NCBI GenBank assembly: GCA_003173855.1
Contig: PPGI01000008.1
Location: 10,119-74,118 of the forward strand
DNA length: 64,000 bases
Origin: Candidatus Zambryskiibacteriota bacterium
Lineage (GTDB): Bacteria > Patescibacteriota > Minisyncoccia > Phycocordibacterales > DATDWN01
Direction of reading: 5' to 3'
Below the pieces are notes generated by a model that saw nothing but the letters and a program-made list of their open reading frames with translations, did no database searches and was not told the DNA's origin. Within the stretch, counting starts at the first letter, position 1. Each line of letters opens with the position of its first letter. Made by a program: the position numbers and the translations under genes. Below, in pieces: positions 1,181 to 16,245 of this stretch.

Positions 1181-1402
1181 TTAGACCATCTCAAAATCTG
1201 CAGGGTCGAGAGGCTCAGTTTCTCTCCCGACATAGAGATGAGAGACTTCTCCATTCTGCAGGTCGCATTCGTTGATCTCGATTTTTTCTCCTGATTCCTT
1301 GTTTCTCACAGTTATTGGTCTCAAGAGTTCAATACGAAAGTTTGGCTTGCCCTTAACCTTCAACAGGCCGCCGGCTTTTTTTATCAAGTCAATTTCTGTC
1401 AT
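1181..1402 (-). CDS. Hypothetical 73-aa protein inserted antisense between rpsG and fusA
   Basis: ORF with a canonical SD (GGAGG, 4 nt before ATG) and its own TTGCAA-N17-TAAAAAT promoter. No recognisable family. Confidence 0.4.
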   Translation of the reverse strand: MTEIDLIKKAGGLLKVKGKPNFRIELLRPITVRNKESGEKIEINECDLQNGEVSHLYVGRETEPLDPADFEMV

Positions 1403-1507
1403 ATAACCTCCACAGTATTTTTATCATTGAAAGTACGTAATTGCAACGAAAGGGCTTTTAGTATATAGTTTGACTATTCCGTTTCGGAAATTTTTTTTAC
1501 TTAAAAT

Positions 1508-3649
1508 ATGAATCGCGACTACACATTAGAAAAAGTCAGAAATTTCGGAATTATTGCCCATATTGATGCTGGTAAAACGACGACTTCAGAACGTGTGCTT
1601 TTTTATACTGGAATGACTCACAAAATCGGAGAAGTGCACGAAGGTGAAACTGTTACTGATTGGATGGAGCAGGAGCGAGAGCGAGGCATCACCATTACGG
1701 CTGCTGCCATTACTTGTTTTTGGAATCCGACCTATATGGCAAAGGGGGCAAAGCCAGAATACCGATTTAATATTATTGATACTCCTGGACACATCGACTT
1801 TACTGCTGAAGTAAAGAGATCACTCCGAGTTCTTGACGGTGCTGTTGTAGTTTTTGATGGAGTTGCGGGAGTTGAACCACAATCAGAAACTAACTGGCGA
1901 TATGCCGATGACGGGAATGTGCCTCGAATTTGTTTTATTAACAAACTTGATCGTACAGGAGCTTCATTTGAAAGATCATATGCTTCGATTCTCGATCGTC
2001 TTACAAAAAATGCTGTCCGAGTTCAAATTCCGATTGGCCTAGAAGACAAACACGAAGGAGTGATTGATCTTTTGAAAATGAAAGCTTTTTATTTTGAGGG
2101 AAATATGGGAATGGCAATTCGCGAAGCAGAAATTCCACCAGAACTTGTTGATGATGCTAAAAAATTCCGAGGAGAATTGATTGAAAAAATTGTCGAACAA
2201 GATGACAGCTTAATGTCTGCATATCTTGAAGGCAAGGAACCAACTTTGGATGAATTAAAAACAACCCTTCGCAAGGCAACTCTTGCAGTAAAACTTGTAC
2301 CAGTTTTTGCAGGTAGTGCTTTAAAAAATAAAGGAGTTCAGCTTGTGCTCGATGGTGTTGTTGATTATCTACCTTCTCCACTTGATATTCCTCCAGTTCA
2401 CGGTATTGATCCGAAAACAGGTGAAGAAATTTTCCGTTCTGCCTCTGACACTGAGCCTTTCTCAGCTTTGGCATTCAAACTTCAGAATGATCCATTCGTC
2501 GGACAATTAACTTTCTTTAGAGTTTATTCTGGAACAATTGAAGCAGGTACTTATGTATATAACGCAACTACAAGTGAAAAAGAACGCCTTGGACGTATTG
2601 TTAGATTGCAAGCTGACAAGCGAGAAGAAGTGAAAAAAGTTTTTGCAGGAGAAATTGCTGCCGCTGTCGGATTAAAATCAGCAAAGACATCTCACACACT
2701 TTGTGATGAAAATAATCCAATTATTTTGGATCCGATTAAATTCGTTGATCCAGTTGTCTCTCTTAGAATTGAGCCAAAAACAAAAGCCGACCAGGAAAAA
2801 ATGGGTATGGCTTTGAAAAAACTTTCTGACGAAGATCCAACTTTTAAAATTTCTTCAAACTCTGACACAGGCGAGTCAATTATTTCTGGAATGGGTGAAT
2901 TACACTTGGAAATCATGGTTGATCGAATGAAGCGCGAATTCGGCGTTGAAGTAAATGTTGGCAAACCTCAAGTTGCATATCGTGAGACAATTCTTGGAAC
3001 TGCTGATGCAGAAAATAAGTACATCAAGCAAACTGGTGGAAAAGGCCAATATGGTCACGTAAAGATTACTCTTAAGCCAATGGAAAAACTGGAGGAAGGT
3101 GCAAAAATTCCTAAAAATGTTAAACGCTATGAAGATTTTGAATTCATTGATTCGATTAAAGGAGGTGTTATTCCACAAGAATTTATTCCAGCAGTTGAAA
3201 AGGGAGTTCATGAAGCAATGGATCGTGGAATTGTGGCTGGATACAAAATGGTCAATGTTTCTTGTGAACTGACTTTCGGTTCATATCATGATGTCGACTC
3301 ATCTGAAATCGCTTACAAAATTGCAGCTTCTCAGGCTTTCCAAGATGCAGCAAAGCGAGCAAAACCTGTTATTTTAGAGCCTATTATGAAAGTTGAAGCA
3401 GTTATGCCAGAGCAATTCATGGGAGATGTTACCGGTTCACTTTCAGGAAAGCGCGGACAAATCGAAGGAATGGATGAGAGGGGAATGCTTCGCGTAATTC
3501 ATGCAAAAGTTCCGCTTTCTGAAATGTTTGGATACACAACTGATATTCGATCAATGACACAAGGACGCGGTTCGGTGATGATGGAGTTTGATCATTACGA
3601 AGTGGTGCCATCTAACGTTGAGAAGCAAATTGTAGAGTCACGGAAATAA
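1508..3649 (+). CDS. fusA: Elongation factor G
   Basis: 713 aa; GTP-binding motifs AHIDAGKTT, DTPGH, NKLD; EF-G domain order. Confidence 0.97.
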   Translation: MNRDYTLEKVRNFGIIAHIDAGKTTTSERVLFYTGMTHKIGEVHEGETVTDWMEQERERGITITAAAITCFWNPTYMAKGAKPEYRFNIIDTPGHIDFTAEVKRSLRVLDGAVVVFDGVAGVEPQSETNWRYADDGNVPRICFINKLDRTGASFERSYASILDRLTKNAVRVQIPIGLEDKHEGVIDLLKMKAFYFEGNMGMAIREAEIPPELVDDAKKFRGELIEKIVEQDDSLMSAYLEGKEPTLDELKTTLRKATLAVKLVPVFAGSALKNKGVQLVLDGVVDYLPSPLDIPPVHGIDPKTGEEIFRSASDTEPFSALAFKLQNDPFVGQLTFFRVYSGTIEAGTYVYNATTSEKERLGRIVRLQADKREEVKKVFAGEIAAAVGLKSAKTSHTLCDENNPIILDPIKFVDPVVSLRIEPKTKADQEKMGMALKKLSDEDPTFKISSNSDTGESIISGMGELHLEIMVDRMKREFGVEVNVGKPQVAYRETILGTADAENKYIKQTGGKGQYGHVKITLKPMEKLEEGAKIPKNVKRYEDFEFIDSIKGGVIPQEFIPAVEKGVHEAMDRGIVAGYKMVNVSCELTFGSYHDVDSSEIAYKIAASQAFQDAAKRAKPVILEPIMKVEAVMPEQFMGDVTGSLSGKRGQIEGMDERGMLRVIHAKVPLSEMFGYTTDIRSMTQGRGSVMMEFDHYEVVPSNVEKQIVESRK

Positions 3650-3818
3650 TTTCTTACTCACTGCATTTCTCGAAGAGACCGTTTCGCTCCGCCAGCGCTA
3701 CGCTCACTAGTTCTCGGCTTTCCGACTTGTCAATGAGCCAGCAAGCTGGACGTTGACAAGACCGAGCTCTCGGCCTGCGAAGTCTCTCCTCGAAACGCAG
3801 TTCGACGAAATTATTTTC
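3642..3818 (+). repeat. GC-rich palindromic MITE-like repeat, copy A (terminal inverted repeats (TIRs) overlap the fusA stop codon)
   Basis: ~95% identical to the reverse complement of 51752..51920. The outer TIRs (gaaataatttc...gaaattattttc) bracket a GC-rich core (3667..3795) containing nested palindromes (ccgagagctcgg; cttgtcaa...ttgacaag). Confidence 0.65.
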
Positions 3819-3881
3819 TTGCTTTTTCATCTTTTAATTTGGGGAAAAGTTGGGCAAAACTTAGCTATTTGCATAAAATTT

Positions 3882-3890
3882 AAATGATAT
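3882..3890 (+). promoter_or_regulatory. Extended -10 promoter element (TGaTATAAT) 10 nt before the ATG at 3900
   Basis: TGnTATAAT match. This implies a very short or leaderless mRNA for the 410-aa ORF. Confidence 0.35.
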
Positions 3891-3899
3891 AATTTATGC

Positions 3900-5132
3900 A
3901 TGAGTACTTCTGTTGCCGAACAAGGTGTCGGTAGAAAAGATAATTATTTAGATATTTTGCATAGGCAGGCTGATGGCCCAGAGTACAAAATTCCTATTAA
4001 GAAAATTGATTTTCGTACGTTACGCAAGCCGACAGATATTGATCCTTTACCTCAAGAAAAAGAAGCCATATCTCCAGAAGAGAAATCAGGAGTAATTTTT
4101 GAAAGTACAGTTTCAAGTCAAAGTTATAAAACACCAAACAAATTAATTGAATATATAAATATTTTAATAAAAGAGAATAGACCTCTCAAAGGTCTGCGGT
4201 GGGATATAGAAGAAGCAAAGTCGCTTGATGAAATAGTCAGTCGACTAACAAAAACAAATTTATTGTCGAAAGAAGAATGTGATGAAGCTATTTCATGCTG
4301 CCAATATCCCAATAAAGAAATTAAATTACATGTTGCATATACTGATCCACATCATGAAAGCACAGATCTGACTTTAGCAAGAAAAGAATACGTTGAAGCA
4401 CTCGTTCCATATTTAAAGAAACTTGAAGAGAAAAAAATTTCTTATCGAAAATTGATGCAAGGTCTCGGTGCTCAAAAAGACATGCCTTTGCCAGGTGAAC
4501 CCAAGGAGCTTGTTAATGCACGAAATGATTATTATAAGGCTAGGAATAAAGATAAAAAATCAAGTGGCCAAATTGAAAAAATCTACGATATCATGGAAGT
4601 TTCAAATCTTCGCCAAGAGATTCTCGCTCTCCAAAGTGAAAGGACGCAAATCTTTATTGATAGAGCAAATAAAAAATGGGAAAAAATTTCAAGAATTGAT
4701 AATGTAAATGTTCTCACAGCATTACTTAGCGATCTAACTTTTTTGTCATATGTTCCTCCAAAAGATGAAAATTATGTTGGTCTTCGTCCAGAAAAAATAA
4801 ATATTCAAGAAGTTATAGAAGAAAAACCTGTTGAAACCAAATCAGAAGTAGTAGAAGAAAAACAAGAGCCAAAGGCAGATCATGCTATTCAGATTTCAAA
4901 TCTGACATTTGATGACAAACCTCTTCAAGTTATTCTAAATACAGATGCCGAACCACAAACTATTCAAGTAATATTTAATGATAATGAAATTGCTTCTGGT
5001 ACGTTGACAAGGAAGGGGCCAAGTATTAAAGTTCATTCCCGTTATAAAGCAGGATTCCTATTGGCAAAGACCATGGAAGAAAAAGCTTTTGAAAACGCGA
5101 ATTCTCTTATAATCAAGAATTTCAAAATCTAA
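3900..5132 (+). CDS. Hypothetical 410-aa cytoplasmic protein inserted between fusA and tuf
   Basis: Long ORF with no transmembrane segment or known motif; coiled-coil-like segment (EILALQSERTQIFIDRANKKWEK). Confidence 0.55.
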   Translation: MSTSVAEQGVGRKDNYLDILHRQADGPEYKIPIKKIDFRTLRKPTDIDPLPQEKEAISPEEKSGVIFESTVSSQSYKTPNKLIEYINILIKENRPLKGLRWDIEEAKSLDEIVSRLTKTNLLSKEECDEAISCCQYPNKEIKLHVAYTDPHHESTDLTLARKEYVEALVPYLKKLEEKKISYRKLMQGLGAQKDMPLPGEPKELVNARNDYYKARNKDKKSSGQIEKIYDIMEVSNLRQEILALQSERTQIFIDRANKKWEKISRIDNVNVLTALLSDLTFLSYVPPKDENYVGLRPEKINIQEVIEEKPVETKSEVVEEKQEPKADHAIQISNLTFDDKPLQVILNTDAEPQTIQVIFNDNEIASGTLTRKGPSIKVHSRYKAGFLLAKTMEEKAFENANSLIIKNFKI

Positions 5133-5428
5133 TGAATATTTTATCAAAGGATATAGTTAAAGAATGGAATATATCCAGTTTGCCGGAAGCAAAACAACAA
5201 GAAATGATTGATCGCATTGGTCGCATAATGTACCAAGCGATTTTGGTGAAATCTTTGGATATTCTTTCTCAAGATGAACAAGATGAACTCGATCAATTAC
5301 TCAATGTTGATTCAACAACTCCACAAGAAGTTTTATTGTTTTTGAAATCAAAAATTCCGACATTTGAACAGTTGGTAATAGAGGAGAGAAAAAATCTAAA
5401 AGAAGATTTGGTTATCGAAAACATCTAA
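5132..5428 (+). CDS. Hypothetical 98-aa acidic protein
   Basis: ORF overlapping the upstream stop (TAATG). No recognisable family. Confidence 0.45.
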   Translation: MNILSKDIVKEWNISSLPEAKQQEMIDRIGRIMYQAILVKSLDILSQDEQDELDQLLNVDSTTPQEVLLFLKSKIPTFEQLVIEERKNLKEDLVIENI

Positions 5429-5431
5429 GGC

Positions 5432-5460
5432 TTGACAGATATTCGCACTTTGTCTACTAT
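5432..5460 (+). promoter_or_regulatory. Promoter TTGACA-N17-TACTAT for tuf
   Basis: Exact TTGACA (5432-5437), 17-nt spacer, TACTAT (5455-5460). Confidence 0.55.
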
Positions 5461-5473
5461 TTAATTTGTCGCA

Positions 5474-5496
5474 CAGGCGATTTTTTTAATCGCCTG
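5474..5496 (+). promoter_or_regulatory. Hairpin in the tuf leader (caggcgat-TTTTTTTA-atcgcctg)
   Basis: 8-bp perfect stem. Shares the 14-mer GCGATTTTTTTAAT with the rplC leader hairpin at 8488..8509. Confidence 0.4.
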
Positions 5497-5597
5497 GAAA
5501 TTCCCAGAATTCAACGATATATAAGTTTCTCGAACGCTGAATTTTTGGAGTTTCCAAAATGGCAAAAGTTTATTATTAGCATTAATTAAAAAATATT

Positions 5598-6794
5598 ATG
5601 GCTGAGTTCGATCGTTCAAAGCCACATGTGAATGTGGGAACAATTGGTCACGTTGACCACGGTAAGACAACATTAACAGCAGCAATTTTGACTGTACTTG
5701 GACGCGCAGGCCAAGGCTTCGGCGCAAAAGTAAAAGGAGTTGATCAAATTGACTCTGCTCCTGAAGAAAAAGCACGAGGAATTACTATCGCGCTTTCTCA
5801 CAATGAGTACGAGACACCTACAAGACACTACGCTCACGTAGATGCTCCTGGACACGCTGACTATATTAAAAACATGATCACTGGTGCCGCTCAGATGGAC
5901 GGTGCAGTATTGGTAGTTGCCGCAACAGACGGTGTTATGCCTCAAACACGAGAGCACGTACTTTTGGCAAAACAAGTTGGTGTGCCAAAGATTATCGTTT
6001 TCCTAAACAAATGCGATATGGTGCCTGACAAAGAACTCATTGATTTGGTTGAGGAGGAAGTTCGAGAGCTCCTTACAAAACAAGGTTTCGATGGTGCAGG
6101 TGCTCCAGTTATTCGAGGTTCAGGTCTTAAAGCTCTTGAGTCAAAAGACAATAATGACGAATGGGCAGCAAAAATTCTAGAACTTGCAAACGCATTGGAT
6201 ACTTATTTCCCAATTCCAGAGAGAGATCTTGAAAAGCCATTCCTTATGCCAGTTGAAGACATTTTCTCAATCGAAGGACGAGGAACTGTGGTAACTGGAA
6301 GAATTGAACGAGGAATCGTAAAAGTTGGTGAAGAAGTAGAGTGTATTGGTTTGAAAGATACAGCAAAATACACTGTTACTGGTATTGAAATGTTCAACAA
6401 ATCACTTCAAGAAGGCCAGGCTGGAGACAACGCTGGAATTCTTCTTCGAGGTGCTAAAAAAGAAGACATTCATCGAGGACAAGTTTTGGCAAAGCCAAAG
6501 ACTGTAACTCCTCACACAGAATTTATGGCAGAAGTTTACATTCTAAAGAAAGAAGAAGGTGGACGACACACAGCATTCGTTACAGGTTACAAACCACAAT
6601 TCTACATTCGAACTACAGACGTAACAGGAGAAGTTTCTCTAAACGAAGGTGTTGAAATGGTTATGCCAGGAGACACAGTTACTTTCAAAGTTAAACTTGT
6701 TGCTCCAGTTGCTCTAGAAGAGAAGACTCGATTTGCGATCCGCGAGGGTGGTAAGACAGTCGGCGCAGGAGTTGTAACAAAAATCCTCGCTTAG
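5598..6794 (+). CDS. tuf: Elongation factor Tu
   Basis: 398 aa; [18 protein letters not shown] motifs. Confidence 0.98.
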
Positions 6795-6920
6795 TAAACT
6801 TCCAAATTTAGCGATCTCCTTGTTTCGAGTTTGAAAATGTTCGTCACTTTACTACTTGTAAAGCTTCTCACATTTTCAAACTCTCAACTTCGGATCTCAT
6901 CTAAATTCTGAAAGTTTAGA
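6795..6920 (+). repeat. Conserved ~125-nt structured 3'-UTR element, copy M1 (begins TAAACTTCCAAATTT at the tuf stop codon)
   Basis: Alignable to the element after rplB (11088..11210). Central hairpin ctttac-tactt-gtaaag (6847..6863) shows compensatory changes relative to ccttac/gtaagg in the other copies. Confidence 0.55.
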
Positions 6921-6922
6921 AA

Positions 6923-6947
6923 AATACCGCACTCGCGGTATTTTTTC
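6923..6947 (+). terminator. Rho-independent terminator after tuf (taccgcactcgcggta + T6)
   Basis: Perfect hairpin followed by TTTTTT. Confidence 0.7.
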
Positions 6948-7022
6948 CCTTACAGGGACTGTACACCTTTCGCACATAACAGTGCTCAAGGTCTTGCGAA
7001 GCTTCGCTTCTCACGCCTAACA

Positions 7023-7051
7023 TTGCATTCAAAATTGAAATTTTTTATAAT
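7023..7051 (+). promoter_or_regulatory. Promoter TTGCAT-N17-TATAAT driving a GC-rich non-coding unit
   Basis: Consensus -35 and -10 with a 17-nt spacer. No ORF >=60 aa in 6795..7378. Confidence 0.5.
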
Positions 7052-7057
7052 ACTAAA

Positions 7058-7338
7058 TGGAGCAGTCGACACACAACCACGCTGAAGTAAGCGAAACGGC
7101 ACTATGAAACGAGATCTCGGCCTCCGGAAGTTTCAAGCCAGCAAAGCGTGTGTGGGAGAGCAGCGAATCTGCTCGTTACATACCTCACAGTAGGCACGCA
7201 CCCCATGTGTCGGGGACTCGTTGAGAGCCGCAGTAGTGACTTCTCCATCGTCCGCATCGGTAGAAAACCAAATCGGTTTCTCCGAGGCGGTTTTCTTTTA
7301 TACTTTACCCCGTACTGAGCTTTGCTCTAGTACTGGGG
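7058..7338 (+). ncRNA. Candidate structured non-coding RNA (~280 nt, GC ~55%) between tuf and rpsJ
   Basis: GC-rich island in an AT-rich genome, with no ORF. It has its own consensus promoter and ends in a hairpin (ccccgtact...agtactgggg, 7308..7338). Identity unknown; it did not match my recall of RNase P, SRP or 6S RNAs. Confidence 0.3.
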
Positions 7339-7367
7339 TTGAACAAAATTTAAATCTCTGTTAGTAT
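7339..7367 (+). promoter_or_regulatory. Promoter TTGAAC-N17-TAGTAT for rpsJ
   Basis: TTGAAC (7339-7344), 17-nt spacer, TAGTAT (7362-7367), 11 nt before the ATG. Confidence 0.55.
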
Positions 7368-7378
7368 CGAGCTTACAA

Positions 7379-7807
7379 ATGCCAACAGCAAAAAAGGAAC
7401 CAAAAGCAAAAAAAGCAGCAGCTCCTAAAAAAACTGCAGCAAAAACTCCTGCAAAAGCTGCTGCTCCAAAGGTTACAAAAGCTAAAGCAGCTCAAGATGT
7501 TATTTCAAAGCTACGAATCCGAGTTCGAGCTTACGAATACAAAATCTTAGATCTTTCAGTAAAACAAATTATCGATACAGCACTTCGATATGATGCAAAA
7601 GTTGAAGGCCCTATTCCACTTCCAACAGAACACAAAAAATATACTGTAAACCGATCATCATTCGTTTACAAAAATGCTAGGGAACAATTTGAAATGAGAA
7701 TTCACAAGCGATTGATTGATATTTTAAATCCTACACCAAAAATCATGGAGGCTCTTACAAATATGTCTTTGCCTAGCGGAGTTAACATCGACGTAAAAAT
7801 AATTTAA
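7379..7807 (+). CDS. rpsJ: 30S ribosomal protein S10 with an ~45-aa Lys/Ala-rich N-terminal extension
   Basis: C-terminal ~100 aa match S10 (RIRVRAYEYKILD...HKRLIDIL). The N-terminus (AKKEPKAKKAAAPKKTAAKTPAKAAAPK) is histone-H1-like. Confidence 0.9.
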   Translation: MPTAKKEPKAKKAAAPKKTAAKTPAKAAAPKVTKAKAAQDVISKLRIRVRAYEYKILDLSVKQIIDTALRYDAKVEGPIPLPTEHKKYTVNRSSFVYKNAREQFEMRIHKRLIDILNPTPKIMEALTNMSLPSGVNIDVKII

Positions 7808-7810
7808 AGA

Positions 7811-7842
7811 CGAAACCACCTCACGATGAGGTGGTTTTGGTA
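7811..7842. terminator. Bidirectional terminator (accacctcacgatgaggtggt + TTTT)
   Basis: 8-bp perfect stem plus T-run, between rpsJ and a convergent membrane ORFan. Confidence 0.65.
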
Positions 7843-7843
7843 T

Positions 7844-8110: not shown

Positions 8111-8208
8111 TCTTGCCTCCGCACTTAGATTATTTCTGTTTATAATTAATGTCAATAAATACACTTGTTTTCGGTTTTTCTCTATGGTAGTTTCTTCTGG
8201 GAGGAAAA

Positions 8209-8421: not shown

Positions 8422-8422
8422 G

Positions 8423-8447
8423 CCGAGCAGAAAACGCTCGGCTTTTC
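8423..8447 (+). terminator. Hairpin terminator (gccgagc-agaaaac-gctcggc + TTTTCT)
   Basis: 7-bp perfect stem plus T-rich tail. Forms the hairpin part of the hairpin-promoter module upstream of rplC. Confidence 0.55.
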
Positions 8448-8453
8448 TAAAAC

Positions 8454-9203: not shown

Positions 9204-9222
9204 CAGTAAACAGTAATTAGTC

Positions 9223-9945
9223 ATGGCAGAAGCAAAGGTAAAAAAGAATACAAAAAAAGCAGAAGCTCCAAAATCAGGACTTGATGCAACTCTTTATACT
9301 CAAGCAGGAAAAGAGGCAAAGAAAATTTCTCTGCCAGAAACTGTTTTTGGACAAAGGTGGAATGCAGATTTGGTTCACCAGGTCGTTACTTCAATGAATT
9401 CAGAAGCACGAACTCCAGTAGCACATACAAAAAATCGAGGAGAAGTTTCTGGAGGAGGTAAAAAACCATGGCAACAGAAAGGAACTGGCCGTGCACGACA
9501 CGGATCTATCCGATCACCACTATGGGTAGGAGGAGGAGTAACTCATGGTCCACGAAACGACAAAGATTTTTCTCGCAAAGTAAATAAGAAAATGAAAGCA
9601 AAGGCACTCTACACCATCCTAAGTGCAAAGATGAAAAATGGTGAGATTCTCTTTGTTGATGATCTAAAAATTGCTGCTCCAAAAACAGCTGAAGCCCTAG
9701 GAATTTTGAACAGTCTTTCTAAAGTTTCAGGATTCGAATCTTTGCTAAACAAAAGAAAGAATTCTGCATTTATTGCTCTATCAGACAAAAATGTAACAGT
9801 CGAAAAAAGCTTTAGAAATTTTGGAAATTTAGAAGTAGATGAAATCAGAAATTTAAATCCGCTTCATTTGATGAAATATAAATATTTGGTTATTTCAAAT
9901 CCAGAAAAAGGTCTGCCACAGATTTCCGGAAAATTAGATAAGTAG
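9223..9945 (+). CDS. rplD: 50S ribosomal protein L4
   Basis: 240 aa; L4-like; position in the S10 operon. Confidence 0.9.
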   Translation: MAEAKVKKNTKKAEAPKSGLDATLYTQAGKEAKKISLPETVFGQRWNADLVHQVVTSMNSEARTPVAHTKNRGEVSGGGKKPWQQKGTGRARHGSIRSPLWVGGGVTHGPRNDKDFSRKVNKKMKAKALYTILSAKMKNGEILFVDDLKIAAPKTAEALGILNSLSKVSGFESLLNKRKNSAFIALSDKNVTVEKSFRNFGNLEVDEIRNLNPLHLMKYKYLVISNPEKGLPQISGKLDK

Positions 9946-9958
9946 TTGGAAAAATAAC

Positions 9959-10237
9959 ATGAAAGATTTAAACCGAGTTTTAATACGACCACGAGTTACA
10001 GAAAAGGCGACACTAGTCACTGAAAATTCAGTCTACACTTTTGTAATTGATCCAAAAGCTACTGTATATCAAGTCAAAAAAGCTTTCGTTGATCGATATA
10101 AATTTGTGCCAGTAAAAATCAATACAGTTACAATTCCAGCAAAAAAAGTTTTTGTTCGAGGAAAATCCGGAATGAAATCTGGTTACAAGAAAGCTTATGT
10201 TTATTTAAAGAAAGGAGACAAAATAGAAAATCTATAA
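9959..10237 (+). CDS. rplW: 50S ribosomal protein L23
   Basis: 92 aa; L23-like; position. Confidence 0.9.
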   Translation: MKDLNRVLIRPRVTEKATLVTENSVYTFVIDPKATVYQVKKAFVDRYKFVPVKINTVTIPAKKVFVRGKSGMKSGYKKAYVYLKKGDKIENL

Positions 10238-10250
10238 AAATATAAACAGC

Positions 10251-11090
10251 ATGAAAAGATACCGACCAACATCAAAATCACGCCGACAGATGACAACCAT
10301 TTCATTTGGTGATTTCATTACCACAAATGACCCAGTCAAGTCATTGACTCATGGCTATAAACGACAAATGGGCCGAAGTCATGGTGAAATAACTACTCGA
10401 CACAAAGGAGGCGGTCACAAGAGACTTTTCCGCGAAGTTGATTTTCTATACGACAAAATAAATATTCCTTACACAATCAAAACTGTTGAATACGACCCAA
10501 ACCGATCAGGTTTTATCGGACTTGCTCAATATGCTGATGGTGAAAAAAGATATGTTCTTGTTCCTCGAGGAATTAAAGTAGGGGAAACATTTTTAACTAG
10601 TGAAACTGCTGAACCAAAAACTGGAAATCGATTGCCTCTAAAAAACATAAATATTGGTACTTTTGTTTACAACGTAGAAATAAAACCAAATGGCGGAGCT
10701 AAACTTGCTCGATCTGCCGGAAACTATATTGAAGTTATTGCTAAAGATGGAGGAATGATTGATCTAAAAATGCCTTCAACTGAAGTTCGCAAAGTTCCAG
10801 AAACAGCTTGGGCATCTATCGGTGATGTTTCAAACAACGAAAACAGATTGGTAAATCTTGGTAAAGCTGGACGTTCACGATGGCTTGGAATCAGGCCTAC
10901 AGTTCGCGGTACAGCAATGAACCCTGTTGATCACAAATACGGTGGAGGAGAAGGCCGTCAGGGAAGAGGAACAAGACGTGCGATTTCTATTTATGGTAAG
11001 CCAACAGGTAAGGGTCAGAAGTCTAGAACTCCTAAGAAGTATTCGAATAAGTTTATTGTTTCTCGCCGACGCGTTGGCAAGCAACGCTAA
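10251..11090 (+). CDS. rplB: 50S ribosomal protein L2
   Basis: 279 aa; conserved L2 C-terminal region (GGGEGRQGRG...). Confidence 0.96.
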   Translation: MKRYRPTSKSRRQMTTISFGDFITTNDPVKSLTHGYKRQMGRSHGEITTRHKGGGHKRLFREVDFLYDKINIPYTIKTVEYDPNRSGFIGLAQYADGEKRYVLVPRGIKVGETFLTSETAEPKTGNRLPLKNINIGTFVYNVEIKPNGGAKLARSAGNYIEVIAKDGGMIDLKMPSTEVRKVPETAWASIGDVSNNENRLVNLGKAGRSRWLGIRPTVRGTAMNPVDHKYGGGEGRQGRGTRRAISIYGKPTGKGQKSRTPKKYSNKFIVSRRRVGKQR

Positions 11091-11210
11091 ACTTCCAAAT
11101 TTGGCGAACTCCTCGTTACCAAATTAAAAATACTCGTCACCTTACATTTGTAAGGCTCCTCGCATTTTTATTTCTCACGTCGGATTTCATCCAAATCTGA
11201 TAATTTTAGG
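11088..11210 (+). repeat. Conserved structured 3'-UTR element, copy M2 (TAAACTTCCAAATTT overlaps the rplB stop)
   Basis: Alignable to 6795..6920; contains hairpin ccttac-attt-gtaagg at 11140..11155. Confidence 0.55.
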
Positions 11211-11258
11211 GCGACCAAATCGGTCGCCTTTGACATTTAAAATTTTTTGTGATTAAAT
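11209..11258 (+). promoter_or_regulatory. Terminator/promoter module: hairpin GGGCGACC..GGTCGCC, then TTGACA-N17-TTAAAT
   Basis: Hairpin 11209..11228; TTGACA 11230..11235; -10 at 11253..11258; GAGGAG SD before the ATG at 11278. Confidence 0.55.
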
Positions 11259-11277
11259 ATACGCAGAGGAGTGAGAA

Positions 11278-11568
11278 ATGAATTCAACTTGTTACTTTTG
11301 CAAAAAACCTGGTCAATTTCGGAAAATGACCCTTTCTTCTCAATTAGGGAGCTGGGCCCCTGAACTGGGTCCCATTGATCACGTAGATGTTCACTCTCAT
11401 TGTTATTTTTGGCGGGCTAAACTTCCTGAAATAGGAATGGTAGTACCTGGTCTTCTGGTTTATGTCGGATTTTTTTTGAAATCAGAAACCATGGTAATAT
11501 ATACCATGTCCTTGGCTTTGCTTTTTGCGGGATGGGGTCTATACAACAGATTTCGTTTCAATTTCTAG
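11278..11568 (+). CDS. Hypothetical 96-aa protein (C-terminal hydrophobic segment) inserted between rplB and rpsS
   Basis: ORF with strong SD, own promoter and downstream terminator. No family recognised. Confidence 0.35.
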   Translation: MNSTCYFCKKPGQFRKMTLSSQLGSWAPELGPIDHVDVHSHCYFWRAKLPEIGMVVPGLLVYVGFFLKSETMVIYTMSLALLFAGWGLYNRFRFNF

Positions 11569-11574
11569 TGTGTA

Positions 11575-11624
11575 GGGCGGCAAAGTAGCCGCCCTTTGAC
11601 ATTTAAAAAATGAAGAATAGAGTT
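11575..11624 (+). promoter_or_regulatory. Terminator/promoter module: hairpin GGGCGGC..GCCGCCC, then TTGACA-N16-TAGAGT
   Basis: Hairpin 11575..11594; TTGACA 11596..11601; AAAGGAG SD before the ATG at 11660. Confidence 0.5.
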
Positions 11625-11659
11625 AATAATAGAGCCATTTTGACAGAAAGGAGTTTCTT

Positions 11660-12004
11660 ATGTGGGAAAGGCAAGCGTTTTTGGAAAAATTACTCAAGGC
11701 CTCGGAACAAGTAATAAAAATATCATCGAGGAGAGAGAAATTCACTTGGGCCGATATTTCTGCTAAGGCTGAAAGGAGTGTTGGCCTGCCTGTAGTTTGT
11801 CCGAATTCTCCACAAAAGTATCATCCAGTGGAGGAAGCTATCGAAACTCTTGCTCGTCATGGTCGTATAAAGCAAAAAATCAAAAGAGATCTATTCTGGG
11901 GTCCACTTATGACTTTGGAGGATCTTCAAAAGATCGAAGAAGCATGGCAACATGTTACAAGACCTTCAAAGATTCTTGAGGTTAAACTTCAGATTGCGTC
12001 CTGA
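11660..12004 (+). CDS. Hypothetical 114-aa protein inserted between rplB and rpsS
   Basis: ORF with strong SD; ends with tandem stops TGA-TAA. No family recognised. Confidence 0.4.
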   Translation: MWERQAFLEKLLKASEQVIKISSRREKFTWADISAKAERSVGLPVVCPNSPQKYHPVEEAIETLARHGRIKQKIKRDLFWGPLMTLEDLQKIEEAWQHVTRPSKILEVKLQIAS

Positions 12005-12012
12005 TAACTAAG

Positions 12013-12062
12013 GGCGGCGAATTGCGCCGCCCTTTGACATTTATAGGCAATTTGTATAGTAT
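12013..12062 (+). promoter_or_regulatory. Terminator/promoter module: hairpin GGGCGGCG..CGCCGCCC, then TTGACA-N17-TAGTAT
   Basis: Hairpin 12013..12033; TTGACA 12034..12039; TAGTAT 12057..12062. Confidence 0.55.
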
Positions 12063-12127
12063 AGGCCCTAAGTTAAGAGCCATTACCTCTAACTTGGTTT
12101 TGTTCGCGGTATTCAGTCAAGTCAGAT

Positions 12128-12153
12128 ACCACAAACAATGTGGTTTTTGTTTT
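12128..12153 (+). promoter_or_regulatory. Terminator-like hairpin in the rpsS leader (accaca-aacaa-tgtggt + TTTTTGTTTT)
   Basis: Perfect 6-bp stem plus T-run, 15 nt before the rpsS ATG. Possible attenuator. Confidence 0.35.
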
Positions 12154-12167
12154 GAACAAATTAAAAT

Positions 12168-12518
12168 ATGACACGTTCAAGCTATAAGGGCCCATATGTC
12201 GATCCTCGTCTATTGAAGAAGATCGAAGGAAAAAAGCATCTGGAAACAGGGGTTATTAAAACTTGGTCACGTGCATGTGTCATTTCTCCGGAAATGGTAG
12301 GCTTCACCTTCGGCGTCCACAATGGCAAGACCCATTTGGACGTTTTAGTTTCTGAAGACATGGTGGGCCATCGACTTGGCGAGTTTGCTCCGACAAAGAA
12401 ATTCATCAAACACGGAGGAAAGATGCAGAAAGAACTGGAACAAAAGAAGAAAGAGGGTGAAATTGCTGCTGCTCAAGCTGCAAAAACTGTAACAGAAGGA
12501 ACTGCAGCTAAAAAATAA
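12168..12518 (+). CDS. rpsS: 30S ribosomal protein S19 with a Lys/Glu/Ala-rich C-terminal extension
   Basis: The first ~90 aa match S19 (GPYVD...NGKTH). ~25-aa tail. Confidence 0.93.
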
Positions 12519-12529
12519 TAAGAACTACT

Positions 12530-12979
12530 ATGGCAACCGCTCAGGCAACACTAGGAAATTTTAGACAAGCACCTCGTAAAATGAGGATGGTTGCCAATAC
12601 AGTTAGAGGAAAAAAAGTTTCTGATGCTTTGGTTAATTTGGATTTCGTTGCAAAGAAGGCAGCATTTCCAATAAAAACTTTGCTTCTTTCTGCACTAGCT
12701 AATGCAAAAAATCTTGGCATTCCAACTGACAATTTGGTAGTCAAGAAAATTACAGTTGATGGCGGCAGCATTTTATACAGACGTCGACCAGCGGCCCGTG
12801 GCAGTGCTCATCCAATAAGGAAGCGAACATCAAGTGTTTTTATTGAATTAGGAGAACCAGAAACAAAAGTAAACAGTGAACAGGCAAGTGTAAAAATTCC
12901 AAAAGAAAAAACTGTAAAGACTGAAAAACACAAGGTCGAAAGAAAATCACGTTCAAAAAAGTCGACTGTTAACTCATAA
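12530..12979 (+). CDS. rplV: 50S ribosomal protein L22 with a basic C-terminal extension
   Basis: L22-like core; ~40-aa tail. Confidence 0.9.
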   Translation: MATAQATLGNFRQAPRKMRMVANTVRGKKVSDALVNLDFVAKKAAFPIKTLLLSALANAKNLGIPTDNLVVKKITVDGGSILYRRRPAARGSAHPIRKRTSSVFIELGEPETKVNSEQASVKIPKEKTVKTEKHKVERKSRSKKSTVNS

Positions 12980-12987
12980 CTATTTAT

Positions 12988-13644
12988 ATGACACACCAAG
13001 TCCACCCATATTCACATAGGTTAGGAATCATAAGAGATTGGAAATCTCGCTGGTTTGGCGTGAAAAATAAATACAAAGAATTTCTAAAAAGTGATGTGCT
13101 TTTGCGAGAATATTTAGAAAAAAAATTGCGAGGAAATTATGTTTCAAATATTGAAATGGAGAGAGGAGAAAAAATTCTTCGAATAATTATTGAAACTTCT
13201 CGACCAGGTATGATCATCGGACGATCAGGGGATGGAGCTGTAAAACTTAAAAACGATGTTCTCTCATATCTTCGAAAAAATAAACTTTCATCAGGAGGCG
13301 AAGTAAAAATTGATATCAAAGAAGTAAAATCCCCTGAATCAAATGCAATGATTGCTGCACAAATGATTGCTGATGGTTTAGAGAAAAGACTTCCATTCAG
13401 ACGCGTTGGCAAACAAATGCTGGAAAAAGTTATTGCCAATCGAGATGTTTCAGGAGTAAAAATCGAGCTTTCTGGCCGACTTGCCGGAGCTACAATGGCC
13501 CGAAAAGAAAAATTAAAGAAAGGACGAATTCCATTGCAAACTTTCCGAGCAGATGTAGATTTTGCTCGATATGAAGCTAGACTGCCATACGGCGGAATTG
13601 GAATAAAAGTTTGGATATACAAAGGAGAAATTTTTAAAAAATAA
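12988..13644 (+). CDS. rpsC: 30S ribosomal protein S3
   Basis: 218 aa with KH domain; S3-like sequence. Confidence 0.93.
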   Translation: MTHQVHPYSHRLGIIRDWKSRWFGVKNKYKEFLKSDVLLREYLEKKLRGNYVSNIEMERGEKILRIIIETSRPGMIIGRSGDGAVKLKNDVLSYLRKNKLSSGGEVKIDIKEVKSPESNAMIAAQMIADGLEKRLPFRRVGKQMLEKVIANRDVSGVKIELSGRLAGATMARKEKLKKGRIPLQTFRADVDFARYEARLPYGGIGIKVWIYKGEIFKK

Positions 13645-13645
13645 A

Positions 13646-14071
13646 ATGTTAATTCCAAAAAAAGTTAAATATAGGAAATGGCATACATTTCGAAAGAACG
13701 CGGACAAAGTCGGTGTAGCTACTCGTGGAACAACTGTTGCTTTTGGTTCACATGGATTGAAGGCACTTGCTGGAGCACGTATCATGTCAAATCAACTTGA
13801 GGCCGCACGAAAAGCCTTGTCACGAGAGGTGGGTAAAACTGGCCGAGTCTGGATTCGAGTTTTTCCTGATATGCCGCTTACTAAAAAACCTGCTGAAGTA
13901 AAGCTTGGAAAAGGTAAGGGAGATTTGTTCGGATACTGTGCGCCAGTGAAACCAGGTCGAGTTATTTTTGAAGTCGATGGGGTAAGTGATTCAGTAGCTC
14001 GAGAATCGCTTCGCAAAGCTGGAACAAAATTGCCAGTAAAAACAAAAGTGATCGCATCTCATCACCAATAA
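13646..14071 (+). CDS. rplP: 50S ribosomal protein L16
   Basis: 141 aa; L16-like. Confidence 0.93.
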   Translation: MLIPKKVKYRKWHTFRKNADKVGVATRGTTVAFGSHGLKALAGARIMSNQLEAARKALSREVGKTGRVWIRVFPDMPLTKKPAEVKLGKGKGDLFGYCAPVKPGRVIFEVDGVSDSVARESLRKAGTKLPVKTKVIASHHQ

Positions 14072-14081
14072 AAAAATAGAT

Positions 14082-14273
14082 ATGAAAAAGCAAATGAAAG
14101 AATTGAATAAGAAAAGTCCAAAGGAATTGGAAACAACGCTAAAAGAAAAGCGAGGAGCTTTGAGAAATTTTCGATTTCAAACTTCTGGAAGCAATGCAAA
14201 AAATGTGAAAGCTGGCCTTGCGCTTCGCAAAGATATCGCAAGAATTCTCACACTTCTAAATAACAAGAAATAA
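14082..14273 (+). CDS. rpmC: 50S ribosomal protein L29
   Basis: 63 aa; position and L29-like helix. Confidence 0.85.
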   Translation: MKKQMKELNKKSPKELETTLKEKRGALRNFRFQTSGSNAKNVKAGLALRKDIARILTLLNNKK

Positions 14274-14274
14274 A

Positions 14275-14535
14275 ATGGCAAAAGCTGCAGTACAAAATAA
14301 TAAAGTAGAGTCAAGAAAAAAAACAATGACTGGTGTTGTTGTTTCCGACAAAATGAAAGACACTGTTGTTGTTTTGGTTGATCGTTATGTTAAACACCCA
14401 AAGTATGGTAAATACATTGCGAAATCGAAGAAATTTAAAGCCCAAGATGCAGGAAACACAAAGAAAATAGGCGACAAAGTCATGATTGAGGAATGCGCAC
14501 CGATTTCAAAAGATAAACATTTTAAAGTAATTTAA
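14275..14535 (+). CDS. rpsQ: 30S ribosomal protein S17
   Basis: 86 aa; S17-like. Confidence 0.9.
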   Translation: MAKAAVQNNKVESRKKTMTGVVVSDKMKDTVVVLVDRYVKHPKYGKYIAKSKKFKAQDAGNTKKIGDKVMIEECAPISKDKHFKVI

Positions 14536-14540
14536 CTATC

Positions 14541-14918
14541 ATGGTACAACCACGTTCAATCGTTAAAATAGCTGACAACTCCGGAGGAAAAATCGGACGT
14601 GTGTTCAAGGTGCTTGGTTCATCAAAAAAGCGATATGCTTCGATTGGCGAGCTTGTGGTGATTTCAATACAAAAGGCAGAACCTCGAAAATCTACAAAGA
14701 AAAAAGATGTTGTTCGTGCAATTGTTGTCAGGCAGAAAGCTCCGTTTCGACGAAAAGATGGTTCATACATTCGATTTGATGAAAATGCAGTAGTTCTCGT
14801 AATGAAAGATGCAAAGAAAAAAGAACCTGTAGCTGGACGTGTTTTCGGCCCAATTCCTCGAGAAATTGGTGATGCTGGATATCAGAAGATTATTTCTCTT
14901 GCACCAGAGGTGGTTTAA
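14541..14918 (+). CDS. rplN: 50S ribosomal protein L14
   Basis: 125 aa; L14-like. Confidence 0.95.
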   Translation: MVQPRSIVKIADNSGGKIGRVFKVLGSSKKRYASIGELVVISIQKAEPRKSTKKKDVVRAIVVRQKAPFRRKDGSYIRFDENAVVLVMKDAKKKEPVAGRVFGPIPREIGDAGYQKIISLAPEVV

Positions 14919-14927
14919 AACAAAAAC

Positions 14928-15149
14928 ATGCACGTAAAAAAAGACGACAAAGTAATAGTTTTAACAGGAAAAGACAAGGGCAAAACTGGTACAGTGGTTA
15001 AAGCATTTCCAAAAATAAACAAGGTAATTGTTTCTGGCGTAAATATTTTAAAAACTCATCAAAAGCCACGACGCGGAGGAGAGAAGGGTCAAATAATTGA
15101 TAAAACAATGCCGATTCACGCTTCCAACGTAAGAAAGACTGGAAAATAA
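14928..15149 (+). CDS. rplX: 50S ribosomal protein L24
   Basis: 73 aa; KOW motif; position. Confidence 0.9.
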
Positions 15150-15150
15150 T

Positions 15151-15765
15151 ATGAAATCGATAAAAGAAAAAATAAAAGAATCCTACAAATCACTTTCCGG
15201 CGATCTAGGTTTGAAAAATGTGATGCAAGCTCCAAGAATCGAAAAAGTTGTAGTTTCAACTGGCGTTGGCTCTATTAAGGATAAGAAAAAACTTGATTTG
15301 GTTGAAGATAGACTTTCAAAAATCACTGGCCAAAAACCAGTGCGAAAAGGTGCAAAAGTTTCAATTTCTGCTTTTAAAGTTCGACAAGGAGAAACAGTTG
15401 GTATGCAAATAACTCTTCGAGGACAAAGAATGTACGATTTTCTAGATAGATTAATTAATATTGCACTTCCGCGAACAAAAGATTTTAGAGGTATTTCAGC
15501 ACGAGGCGTAGATGAAATGGGAAACTATACTGTTGGCATTAGAGAGCATACAATTTTCCCTGAAACATCAGACGAAGATCTCCGAGATGTTTTCGGGCTC
15601 TCAGTTACAGTTGTTACAAATCTTCGTGATCCAAAACAAACTCGAAAATTTTTAGAATATCTAGGCTTTCCATTTAAAAAAGTTGAAACTGGCAAAGAAG
15701 AGACGATTTCTATAATTACTGTGGCGAAGAAAGAGGATAAGAAAAAGAAAGCAAAAGTAGCGTAG
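15151..15765 (+). CDS. rplE: 50S ribosomal protein L5 (with a Lys-rich C-terminal tail)
   Basis: 204 aa; L5-like. Confidence 0.93.
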   Translation: MKSIKEKIKESYKSLSGDLGLKNVMQAPRIEKVVVSTGVGSIKDKKKLDLVEDRLSKITGQKPVRKGAKVSISAFKVRQGETVGMQITLRGQRMYDFLDRLINIALPRTKDFRGISARGVDEMGNYTVGIREHTIFPETSDEDLRDVFGLSVTVVTNLRDPKQTRKFLEYLGFPFKKVETGKEETISIITVAKKEDKKKKAKVA

Positions 15766-15825
15766 TTGATTTTTTCTATTTTTCGTATTTAATATGCTAG
15801 GAAGTTTTTTTGAAAGGAGCTAATA

Positions 15826-16245
15826 GTGATTGTATTGCTTTTGGCAGTAGCAGCATTAGTGTGGTTTCTCAGTCTTGTAACCAGAAGAAAGAGACGTCTA
15901 AAGCGCCTCAAGTTCCTAAGAAATGCCAGGTTTCAAGAGAAAATGTTTGGTGAACATTTTCTCAACATGGCACTTGAGAAACAAAAGGATATCAGGTGTT
16001 GGGTAATTTATAAGCACTATCCTTGGGGACATGGCTACAAAGTTCGTTTGGAAGATTTATGTGAACCAGACGATATACTTTCTGTAGTCGTGAACTTTTC
16101 TTTTCCAGAGAAGAAAAGAATTGCCATGGGGCTTTATTCTGACTACAGATATTTCTCAACCAGTCGAAATTCTCTCGATCGGGCAACAGAAGAGTTTGAA
16201 AGACGATTGATGCATTTGGTTTACGAAACTCAACGGGTACCTTAG
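15826..16245 (+). CDS. Hypothetical 139-aa protein (N-terminal transmembrane helix) inserted between rplE and rpsZ; GTG start
   Basis: AAGGAG SD 7 nt before the GTG; followed by the hairpin-promoter module. No family recognised. Confidence 0.45.
   Translation: MIVLLLAVAALVWFLSLVTRRKRRLKRLKFLRNARFQEKMFGEHFLNMALEKQKDIRCWVIYKHYPWGHGYKVRLEDLCEPDDILSVVVNFSFPEKKRIAMGLYSDYRYFSTSRNSLDRATEEFERRLMHLVYETQRVP

Follow-up and report, generated by a model that had tools for sequence, protein, structure and literature searches.

Small Shine-Dalgarno-Led Genes in the Ribosomal Operon and Islets of an Otherwise Shine-Dalgarno-Poor Paceibacterium

In a 64-kb stretch of bacterial DNA (the window), which includes the str/S10/spc ribosomal array, we found two groups of genes that differ in the sequence preceding their start codons. 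Conserved genes lack a Shine-Dalgarno (SD) motif almost without exception, whereas 15 open reading frames (ORFs), most of them small, are led by a canonical SD. The SD-led ORFs lie at boundaries within the ribosomal operon, in islets adjoining tRNA and transfer-messenger RNA (tmRNA) genes and elsewhere. This dichotomy is real, statistically strong and common to the closest relatives. We read it, with moderate confidence, as two initiation regimes in an SD-poor lineage of Paceibacteria: an SD-less core and SD-led stand-alone accessory units.

Results

Canonical SD Motifs Are Nearly Confined to ORFs Without a Protein Family

The genes of the window were identified with Pfam, Rfam and ARAGORN. 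The gene for uL30 (L30) is absent between those for uS5 and uL15 (rpsE ends at 18447, rplO starts at 18449), and in a species-level genome collection the loci closest by uS19 (85–91% identity) are from Patescibacteria, namely Zambryskibacteria, Nomurabacteria and other Paceibacteria metagenome-assembled genomes. The source organism is therefore a bacterium of the Candidate Phyla Radiation (CPR), a Zambryskibacteria-like Paceibacterium. A set of 80 related genome loci, labeled L001, L002 and so on, was used for comparison.

For each start codon the duplex energy between the 16 nt upstream and CACCUCCUUU was calculated. We called an SD canonical if it contained GGAGG or AGGAG, had a spacer of 4–8 nt and paired with a free energy (dG) of −8 kcal/mol or lower. 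The window holds 15 ORFs (65–329 codons) with such a motif, which is complementary to the 16S 3′ end CACCUCCU. The sites read GGAGG, AGGAG or GAGGAG, some extended to GGAGGTG, and their energies range from −8.1 to −14.1 kcal/mol, versus a median of −0.5 for native genes. Energies of −8 or lower occur at 1.8% of all positions and at 2.0% of all ATG/GTG/TTG triplets.

With curated starts, 14 of the 26 ORFs without a family have an SD, compared with one of 60 family-supported genes (Fisher p = 2.7e-8). The contrast drawn in a preliminary description of the window, in which native genes lack an SD, was thereby confirmed. The start sites given there all exist with a strong SD at 4–8 nt, and the strands of 8110 (−), 29221 (+) and 52738 (+) were confirmed. 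The only family-supported gene with an SD encodes an excisionase-type helix-turn-helix (HTH) protein (29221); among the other 59 there is none, and in housekeeping genes the rate is that of the background, about 2%. The difference is also significant in the operon region alone (5/8 vs. 0/25, p = 2.4e-4). The gene for a beta-CASP RNase was considered as a native gene with an SD and rejected: TTG 22964 is an artefact of taking the longest ORF, and the true start, ATG 23000, has an A/T-rich upstream sequence.

The SD-led ORFs are not simply the ORFans of the window. That ORFans carry SDs is correct for the 14 of 26 given above, but about a dozen family-less ORFs have none, several of them within pilus operons; SD-less ORFs of this kind are those at 3900, 5132, 41265, 46479, 48827, 53010, 54244, 54920, 58203 and 59381. 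The common feature of the SD-led set is the architecture described below.

Controls for start assignment and selection gave the same picture. In conserved ORFs of the 80 related loci, an SD precedes 0.9% of first starts. If any start in the first 30 codons is allowed, 4.5% of 1031 conserved ORFs reach −8 kcal/mol; this is the level expected from multiple testing, so mis-called starts do not hide SDs, and the start-calling artefact that could have undone the pattern is effectively ruled out. In a scan independent of annotation, 114 combinations of SD and start lay outside known frames, of which 20 open an ORF that is 60 codons or longer. For starts without an SD the share is 5.5% (p = 5.6e-6 for the difference), and long ORFs are 3.7 times as frequent at sites with SD and start as at other starts. 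NCBI annotation agrees with the SD-led ORFs where the two were compared.

The same split is present in the six closest relatives (L001–L006), in which 14 of 47 rare ORFs and none of 92 conserved ORFs have an SD. SD-led gap ORFs are concentrated in the sub-clade of the window: 25 of 152 gap ORFs carry an SD in the window and L001–L006, versus 66 of 1160 in the other loci.

Six SD-Led Cassettes Interrupt the Ribosomal Operon

Six SD-led cassettes are located in the ribosomal operon, at the boundaries rpsG/fusA, rpsJ/rplC, rplB/rpsS and rplE/rpsN, and each is directly followed on its 3′ side by a GC hairpin. The SD-led ORFs of the window were scanned against Pfam, PHROG, PADLOC and NCBIfam, and only the excisionase-like HTH protein matched. 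Thirteen SD-led ORFs have neither a library match nor a known relative, most of them without a sensitive homology search having been made. The ORFs of cassettes 1 to 4 all belong to those that matched no family in the four libraries.

Cassette 1 (1181–1411, minus strand) is located between rpsG and fusA. It consists of a 73-aa ORF (1181–1402) with the SD GGAGG at 1407–1411 (dG −10.5) and a downstream terminator hairpin of 12 bp (1136–1163). The ORF is annotated identically in NCBI and forms a singleton cluster. Next to it, the palindrome TTGCAA (1441–1446) has a −10-like box at a distance of 17 nt on either strand, and could be a shared −35 element of divergent promoters for fusA and ORF 1402.

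The gap between rpsJ and rplC contains cassettes 2 and 3. Cassette 2 (7844–8120, minus strand) encodes an 88-aa membrane protein (7844–8110) behind the SD GGAGG (8116–8120, dG −9.5); it has a promoter match TTGACA-17-TAATCT whose −10 ends 16 nt upstream, and its hairpin (7811–7836) is shared with the end of rpsJ. Cassette 3 (8199–8447, plus strand) comprises the SD GGGAGG (8199–8204, dG −10.2), a 70-aa ORF starting with GTG (8209–8421) and a hairpin (8424–8447).

Cassettes 4 and 5, both on the plus strand, follow each other in the gap between rplB and rpsS and share a hairpin. In cassette 4 (11209–11594), a hairpin (11209–11228) is followed by the −35 element TTGACA (11230–11235), the SD GAGGAG (11266–11271, dG −9.1) and an ORF for a 96-aa Cys-rich membrane protein (11278–11568), after which comes the hairpin at 11575–11594. 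This hairpin opens cassette 5 (11575–12032), which continues with the promoter TTGACA-16-TAGAGT (11596–11623), the SD AAAGGAG (11647–11653, dG −8.5), a 114-aa ORF (11660–12004) and the hairpin at 12012–12032. A search of ORF 11660 against 5.8e9 proteins returned only the query itself. A putative paralogue family with an "AWEY" motif (ORF 11660 and cassettes of L003 and L006) was rejected, as an iterative hidden Markov model search regained only its seeds and pairwise E-values were 0.02–0.07.

Cassette 6 (15768–16248, plus strand) lies in the gap between rplE and rpsN and has a promoter-like TTGATT-18-TAATAT, the SD AAAGGAG (15813–15819) and a hairpin (16232–16248). Its ORF starts with GTG (15826–16245) and encodes a single-pass membrane protein of 139 aa. 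Three homologues with 47–52% identity were found among 1.84e9 representative sequences. The AlphaFold2 model has a confident fold (pLDDT 87.6), and a fold search with this model gave no PDB match below E = 0.09.

SD-Led Genes Are Also Found in GC-Rich Islets and Among Pilus Genes

The strongest SD of the window, GGGAGGTGG (dG −14.1), precedes the excisionase-type HTH ORF (29210–29433, plus strand; 70-aa ORF 29221–29433), which is located beside smpB and the tmRNA gene. It matches Pfam HTH_17 (E = 1.7e-9) and the PHROG excisionase families, and has a GC content of 0.57 and a GC content at third codon positions (GC3) of 0.72.

An islet at tRNA-Ile(UAU) (31526–33026, plus strand) contains four SD-led ORFs: 31546–31758 (SD GGAGGTG, dG −13.1), 31978–32322 (AAGGAG, −8.9), 32410–32607 (GGAGG, −10.7) and 32694–33026 (AGGAGG, −11.4). 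The last three are annotated in NCBI as singletons. All four have a TTGACA/TTTACA-16-TAnnnT promoter match of 10/12 and a GC content of 0.46–0.50, and none has a Pfam match. The tRNA-Ile of this islet (31807–31881) has the anticodon UAU; such tRNAs are uncommon for AUA reading in bacteria, where a lysidine-modified CAU tRNA is usual.

The gene at 35314–36315 (minus strand) codes for a beta-helix protein of 329 aa with a signal-peptide-like N-terminus; the SD GAGGAG (36310–36315, dG −8.7) precedes the start at 36303/36306. The preliminary description had counted several genes among the SD-led ones at 35314–36306, where there is a single gene, which with 2306 homologues is no ORFan. Its GC content is 0.52 (mean of native genes 37%) and its GC3 0.62. 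Relatives are found mainly on soil contigs with 50–70% GC, in which 47 of 64 copies and 22% of neighbor genes have an SD. In the SD-poor Parcubacteria loci L082 and L084 the beta-helix homologue is the sole SD carrier, with none among its 4–8 neighbors. Two ORFs with collagen triple-helix repeats (36757–38627, minus strand) adjoin the beta-helix gene and a DUF6804 gene. Their region has a GC content of up to 47% and a strong negative GC skew (37001–38000), and their starts are ambiguous. Together with the beta-helix and DUF6804 genes, they may form a surface-protein or element-derived islet.

Beside tRNA-Ser lies a further islet with an SD-led ORF for 81 aa (52728–52983, plus strand; ORF 52738–52983, SD AGGAGG, dG −10.2). 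It has no Pfam, PADLOC or NCBIfam family; a single NCBIfam match at E = 0.007 was far below the cut-off and is noise. The islet also holds HTH_17-like genes (53619–54049, minus strand), with matches for 53894–54049 and 53619–53897. The remaining two SD-led ORFs are on the plus strand. The first (55520–55839; ORF 55531–55839) encodes a polytopic membrane protein of 102 aa behind the SD AAGGAGG (dG −11.9) and the promoter TTGACC-16-TAGAGT, and has no Pfam or PADLOC family. The second (57860–58098; ORF 57871–58098, 75 aa), with SD GGAGG (dG −9.5) and promoter TTGACG-16-TACTAT, is located between pilM and downstream pilus genes; its start is identical in NCBI, and it is absent from the preliminary description.

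SD-Led ORFs Share a Compact Promoter Architecture

Promoters were called as consensus matches scored out of 12, with 9/12 or more regarded as strong. Nine of the 15 SD-led ORFs have a strong sigma-70 match whose −10 ends 14–38 nt upstream of the start (background 2.2%, p = 6e-12), typically of the form TTGACA-16/17-TAnnnT. The significance of these matches lies in their position relative to the starts. None of the 15 has a −10 at the distance expected for a leaderless mRNA (5–12 nt upstream). The ORFs are short, with a median of 88 aa versus 193 aa for native genes, and their GC3 is raised (0.436 vs. 0.255 ± 0.048, p = 3.4e-7). By their motifs, the SD-led ORFs are autonomous units made up of a sigma-70-type promoter, a short leader with SD, a small ORF and a GC hairpin.

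The inserts had been described as having a base composition equilibrated to that of the host; this is not the case, as the GC3 of the operon cassettes ranges from 0.24 to 0.49. The proposal of a different origin or expression regime for the inserted genes was borne out, since translation signal, promoter architecture, size, GC3 and conservation all differ between the two groups.

Native Genes Start Without SD

The str/S10/spc array (240–20168, plus strand) was identified with Pfam and reaches from rpsL to secY. It comprises rpsL (240), rpsG (653), fusA (1508), tuf (5598), rpsJ (7379), rplC (8535), rplD, rplW, rplB (10251), rpsS (12168), rplV, rpsC, rplP, rpmC, rpsQ, rplN, rplX, rplE (15151), rpsN (16318), rpsH, rplF, rplR, rpsE, rplO and secY (18894). 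It is followed by adk, map, ndk, the gene for the beta-CASP RNase, rplT/rpmI/infC, smpB, ftsH, recG and genes for collagen-repeat proteins and type IV pili; Rfam and ARAGORN identified the genes for tmRNA, tRNA-Ile(UAU) and tRNA-Ser. All array genes are SD-less, with energies from +2 to about −5 (rplC, GTG 8535, has −5.0), and none reaches −8. In a 20-nt window rplX stands out with −6.6, owing to a mis-spaced purine run 12 nt before its start. Native genes have a mean GC content of 37%. At their upstream positions −10 to −2, 56–70% of nucleotides are A and 10% or less are G, except for 14% G at −10. Spacing from stop to start between the operon-internal genes of the array is mostly 1–19 nt.

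A −10-like box ends 5–12 nt upstream of the start in seven of 33 native genes that are first in their unit (background 2.7%, p = 2.4e-5). This geometry suggests leaderless or near-leaderless mRNAs for a part of the native first genes. The native promoter of rpsS (TTGACA-17-TAGTAT, 12034–12062, plus strand) is followed by an SD-less leader up to 12167 with a hairpin and T-run (12128–12144), and this leader is kept in L001, L003, L004, L006 and L016. The rpsN promoter (16254–16282, plus strand) comes directly after cassette 6. A hairpin and a run of 5–8 T before an SD-less start are found in the leaders of fusA (1477–1497), rplC (8487–8509), rpsS (12128–12150) and rpsN (16285–16305). These elements may be attenuators or autoregulatory leaders of ribosomal protein genes.

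Two further features of the array concern its proteins. Between fusA and tuf (3900–5428) there are two ORFs (410 and 98 aa) without Pfam match or SD, whose conservation extends to L001 and L003, both among the closest relatives (32–60% identity); they are a clade-specific insertion of native type inside the str operon. uS10 is extended at its N-terminus by about 45 residues with a high content of Lys, Ala and Pro (7379–7510), and uS19 at its C-terminus (12420–12518). Both extensions match the CPR-specific ones of ribosomal proteins described by Tsurumaki et al. (2022; PMC9297842).

Operon Junctions Are Insertion Hotspots and Diverged Cassettes Keep Their SD

In the 80 related loci the gap between rplB and rpsS has a median length of 809 nt (up to 5.6 kb), and that between rplE and rpsN one of 708 nt. 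The gaps rpsJ–rplC and fusA–tuf are variable too, while tuf–rpsJ is mostly tight. Specific junctions of the str/S10/spc operon are thus clade-wide hotspots for variable inserts.

The rplB–rpsS gap of the window contains three copies of a hairpin, GGGCGRC-loop-GYCGCCC, fused to TTTGACATTTA. The copies bracket cassettes 4 and 5 and precede the rpsS promoter. In L001, L002, L003, L005 and L006 the same hairpin flanks cassettes or precedes the rpsS promoter, with compensatory changes in its stem, and a single gap of L006 holds a row of four or five units.

Diverged cassettes retain their SDs. ORF 15826 has an orthologue in L086, also in the rplE–rpsN gap (52% identity in the search of representatives, 46% in the alignment); a promoter-like element of its own precedes it, and CAGGAGA is found 6 nt upstream of its ATG. 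All three members of a Zn-ribbon-like cassette family (27–44% identity) have an SD, although they are found in different gaps: tuf–rpsJ in L001 and L006, rplB–rpsS in L003. A pair of cassette orthologues in L016 and L037 (58% identity) likewise has an SD in both. An SD kept at 27–58% identity in a genome with a GC3 of 0.25 argues for selection and thus for use of the SD by the resident ribosome; the motif looks to be maintained by selection inside an SD-poor lineage. We think that the operon cassettes are probably long-term residents of a cassette pool of the clade.

Non-coding sequences at these junctions also drew our attention. Copies of an element of about 110 nt directly follow the stop codons of tuf (6795–6905) and rplB (11088–11200), with 81% identity over a 58-nt stretch. 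The element folds into a long imperfect hairpin, with arms at 6822–6852 and 6858–6888, and is conserved at several operon junctions of sister genomes: L002 (three copies), L003 (8887–9008) and L006 (about 2871–2914). It may act as a clade-specific terminator or as a processing element, or be a repeat resembling miniature inverted-repeat transposable elements. In the tuf–rpsJ gap (about 7040–7300), a promoter-like TTGAAA...TATAAT and a hairpin with T-run enclose a GC-rich stretch of about 230 nt that contains no convincing ORF. This stretch folds better than 100 of 100 shuffled sequences (z = −2.6), matches nothing in Rfam at E ≤ 1 and is a candidate small RNA or decayed cassette. A search of the operon gaps with Rfam at relaxed thresholds revealed no credible family. 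Outside the array, at 22380–22600, about 150 nt of non-coding sequence extend from a promoter-like TTGTTA-16-TATAAT to the strong terminator AAAATCCCACAAATGTGGGATTTTT, which closely precedes a small membrane ORF that overlaps the start of the beta-CASP RNase gene. This element has no Rfam family and is a candidate riboswitch, leader or small RNA.

Discussion

We propose that core genes of this organism start without SD, with operon-internal genes, closely spaced behind the previous stop and A-rich upstream, relying on coupling or re-initiation, and that a sizeable share of native first genes would be translated from leaderless or near-leaderless mRNAs. The accessory mini-units would each consist of a sigma-70-type promoter, a leader of about 10–30 nt with canonical SD, an ORF of 65–140 codons and a GC hairpin, and would occupy transcription-unit boundaries of the ribosomal operon and islets adjoining tRNA and tmRNA genes. 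The SDs of the cassettes are most likely functional, with the 16S tail of the host 30S subunit still pairing, which would imply an anti-SD that is intact and in use. For a young or imported gene with neither an upstream cistron nor a leaderless 5′ end, pairing with the SD may be the only cheap way of recruiting a ribosome. The conservation of the SD among cassette orthologues supports this mechanism indirectly.

Several points weigh against two initiation regimes. The number of promoter matches in the window as a whole is not above that in shuffled sequence, as the genome is AT-rich. The raised GC3 of the SD-led ORFs also fits a rapid flux of foreign DNA, as does the lack of any operon cassette shared with relatives at 85–91% uS19 identity; a tblastn search with the six operon cassettes detected none in the 80 related loci. 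Only 48% of the 16S genes of Parcubacteria were found to contain the anti-SD motif CCTCCT, and there is overlap between the remaining lineages and the group that lacks uL1 (Tsurumaki et al., 2022; PMC9297842). A scan for the 16S 3′-end motif located no 16S gene in the window or the 80 related loci. The uL1-lacking group presumably includes lineages of the Zambryski- and Nomurabacteria type. Finally, SD-like pentamers are not depleted in 1120 conserved coding sequences of the window and L001–L080 (ratios of 1.03 for GGAGG and 1.02 for AGGAG), and thus give no independent indication that the anti-SD is active; the null model, a synonymous-codon shuffle, is crude, ignores codon-pair bias and had no positive control, so that the result is weak evidence in either direction. 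A separate observation from this analysis is that CCTCC, the anti-SD sequence itself, is depleted (ratio 0.61) and is among the five most depleted of the 1024 pentamers. Since its complement GGAGG is at 1.03, the bias is strand-specific, and codon-pair effects are possible.

Part of this evidence has led us to consider that all SD-led ORFs are recent foreign DNA from SD-using bacteria, taken up for instance via the competence pilus, and that their SDs are non-functional leftovers which the host ribosome ignores or cannot pair with, the ORFs being replaced by turnover before the SDs decay. The raised GC3, the absence of shared operon cassettes in the closest relatives, an anti-SD motif that goes undetected in about half of the Parcubacteria (PMC9297842) and the lack of avoidance of SD-like motifs in coding sequences would all fit, as would GC-rich islets with an excisionase-like gene and a beta-helix family found mostly on high-GC, SD-using contigs. 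We nevertheless regard this explanation as unlikely, because orthologous cassettes at 27–58% identity in SD-poor genomes keep a well-spaced SD, although G-rich motifs should erode fast at a GC3 of 0.25. Furthermore, the operon cassettes reuse a hairpin and −35 junction specific to the sub-clade, and well-sampled donors should have yielded matches, whereas ORF 11660 is without relatives and ORF 15826 has only three. For the GC-rich islets the situation is different: with a GC3 of 0.72 in the excisionase gene and a beta-helix family residing on high-GC, SD-using contigs, import is the best reading, and it is well supported that some SD-led units were recently imported from genomes that use SDs or from mobile elements. 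For these islets, the horizontal acquisition from donors with SDs that the preliminary description had put forward for all inserts thus holds; for the operon cassettes, whose diverged orthologues keep the SD, a mere relic fits less well. The SD-led units might alternatively be remnants and cargo of CPR phages, plasmids or integrative elements whose SDs out-compete host mRNAs. Excisionase-type HTH genes (29221 and 53619–54049) adjoin the genes for tmRNA and tRNA-Ser, a further islet flanks tRNA-Ile, and the Zn-ribbon family occupies different gaps in different genomes. Collagen-repeat and beta-helix proteins are encoded nearby, and both types are common in phage tail fibers. This strategy seems quite improbable to us, since domain scans of the ORFs revealed no integrase, terminase or capsid gene in the window, and the excisionase-like ORF gave the sole PHROG match among the SD-led ORFs tested. 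A phage source had also been suggested earlier, but the three ORFs searched against viral contigs (15826, 31978 and 32694) had no relatives there, and the beta-helix family had one weak relative. At the tRNA and tmRNA genes there are no att-like direct repeats: at tRNA-Ser no direct repeats of 14 nt or more were found, and the tmRNA/tRNA-Ile region has only short, imperfect AT-rich repeats (82–89% identical, 15–20 nt). In addition, each operon cassette consists of one gene between hairpins of the host type.

A very improbable explanation is that the pattern is an artefact of choosing ORFs for SD-like motifs or of mis-called native starts. The starts 32410 and 57871 are indeed internal to longer ORFs and were picked for their SD. 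Against this stand the significant result of the unbiased scan of all SD and start sites, the failure of alternative starts to provide conserved genes with SDs, a promoter and hairpin architecture that is independent of the SD, concordant NCBI gene calls and known homologues for two families (beta-helix and 15826); the artefact is effectively refuted. A two-tier system is also conceivable, in which core mRNAs bypass the anti-SD and the cassette pool is read only via pairing of SD and anti-SD, perhaps by a sub-population of ribosomes with an exposed 16S tail similar to Flavobacterium ribosomes deficient in bS21. We consider such a system rather doubtful. Within it, a stranger variant may apply, in which the anti-SD is lost and GGAGG is still selected upstream of cassettes; if true, this would mean a route of SD recognition without the 16S tail.

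Returning to two initiation regimes, the closest known parallel is found in Bacteroidia. There, in Flavobacterium johnsoniae, bS21/bS18/bS6 sequester the anti-SD, start sites are rich in A and resemble Kozak sequences, and a strong SD is present in a single gene, rpsU, where it serves as an autoregulatory switch (PMC7797042, PMC9976891, PMC13000453, PMC13000457). Here too, nearly all core genes are SD-less with an A-rich, G-poor upstream region, and a minority has a strong, well-spaced SD. The differences are the phylum (CPR), the number of SD-led ORFs (about 15 of roughly 85 in 64 kb versus one gene) and their nature: they are small, stand-alone accessory units with fast turnover, some of them imported, and not an autoregulated ribosomal gene. 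The genes rpsU, rpsR and rpsF lie outside the window. Parcubacteria reported to lack the anti-SD motif (Tsurumaki et al., 2022, RNA 28:1041; PMC9297842) belong to the same broad lineage and fit the SD-free core. That study dealt with rRNA only and does not describe SD usage in mRNAs; a conserved SD-led class would be unexpected if the anti-SD were truly missing. The −10-like box near the ATG in seven of 33 native first genes resembles leaderless systems, a likeness that concerns a part of the native genes and was deduced from sequence. Leaderless initiation is known in Actinobacteria, Deinococcus and archaea.

With chromosomal integron arrays the cassettes share the tandem arrangement of small, mostly ORFan genes, a repeated imperfect palindrome between them and rapid turnover. 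They differ in that the stems are 7–10 bp long and lack RYYYAAC/GTTRRRY cores, each unit has its own promoter, and the hairpin is a terminator fused to the next −35. No recombinase domain, integrase or attI was found in the window ORFs scanned. We therefore rejected an integron attC array: cores and IntI are absent and the likeness is superficial. The SD-led, GC-richer ORFs and excisionase-like HTH genes beside tRNA-Ile, tRNA-Ser and smpB/tmRNA are reminiscent of islets at tRNA and tmRNA genes, unlike which they are very small (one to four genes) and have no integrase that we could find. Our literature search returned no description of SD usage classes in CPR bacteria, and nothing comparable to a two-class SD split within one CPR genome has been described.

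CPR ribosomes are reduced, and the anti-SD has been reported missing in many CPR lineages. The SD split offers a testable handle on how CPR bacteria choose start sites, on whether and for what purpose they retain the anti-SD, and on how new or imported genes become expressed. In genomes of this kind, a gene caller that assumes a single type of ribosome-binding site will assign wrong starts to one of the two classes. Furthermore, junctions in the most conserved operon of bacteria act as clade-wide hotspots for ORFan cassettes.

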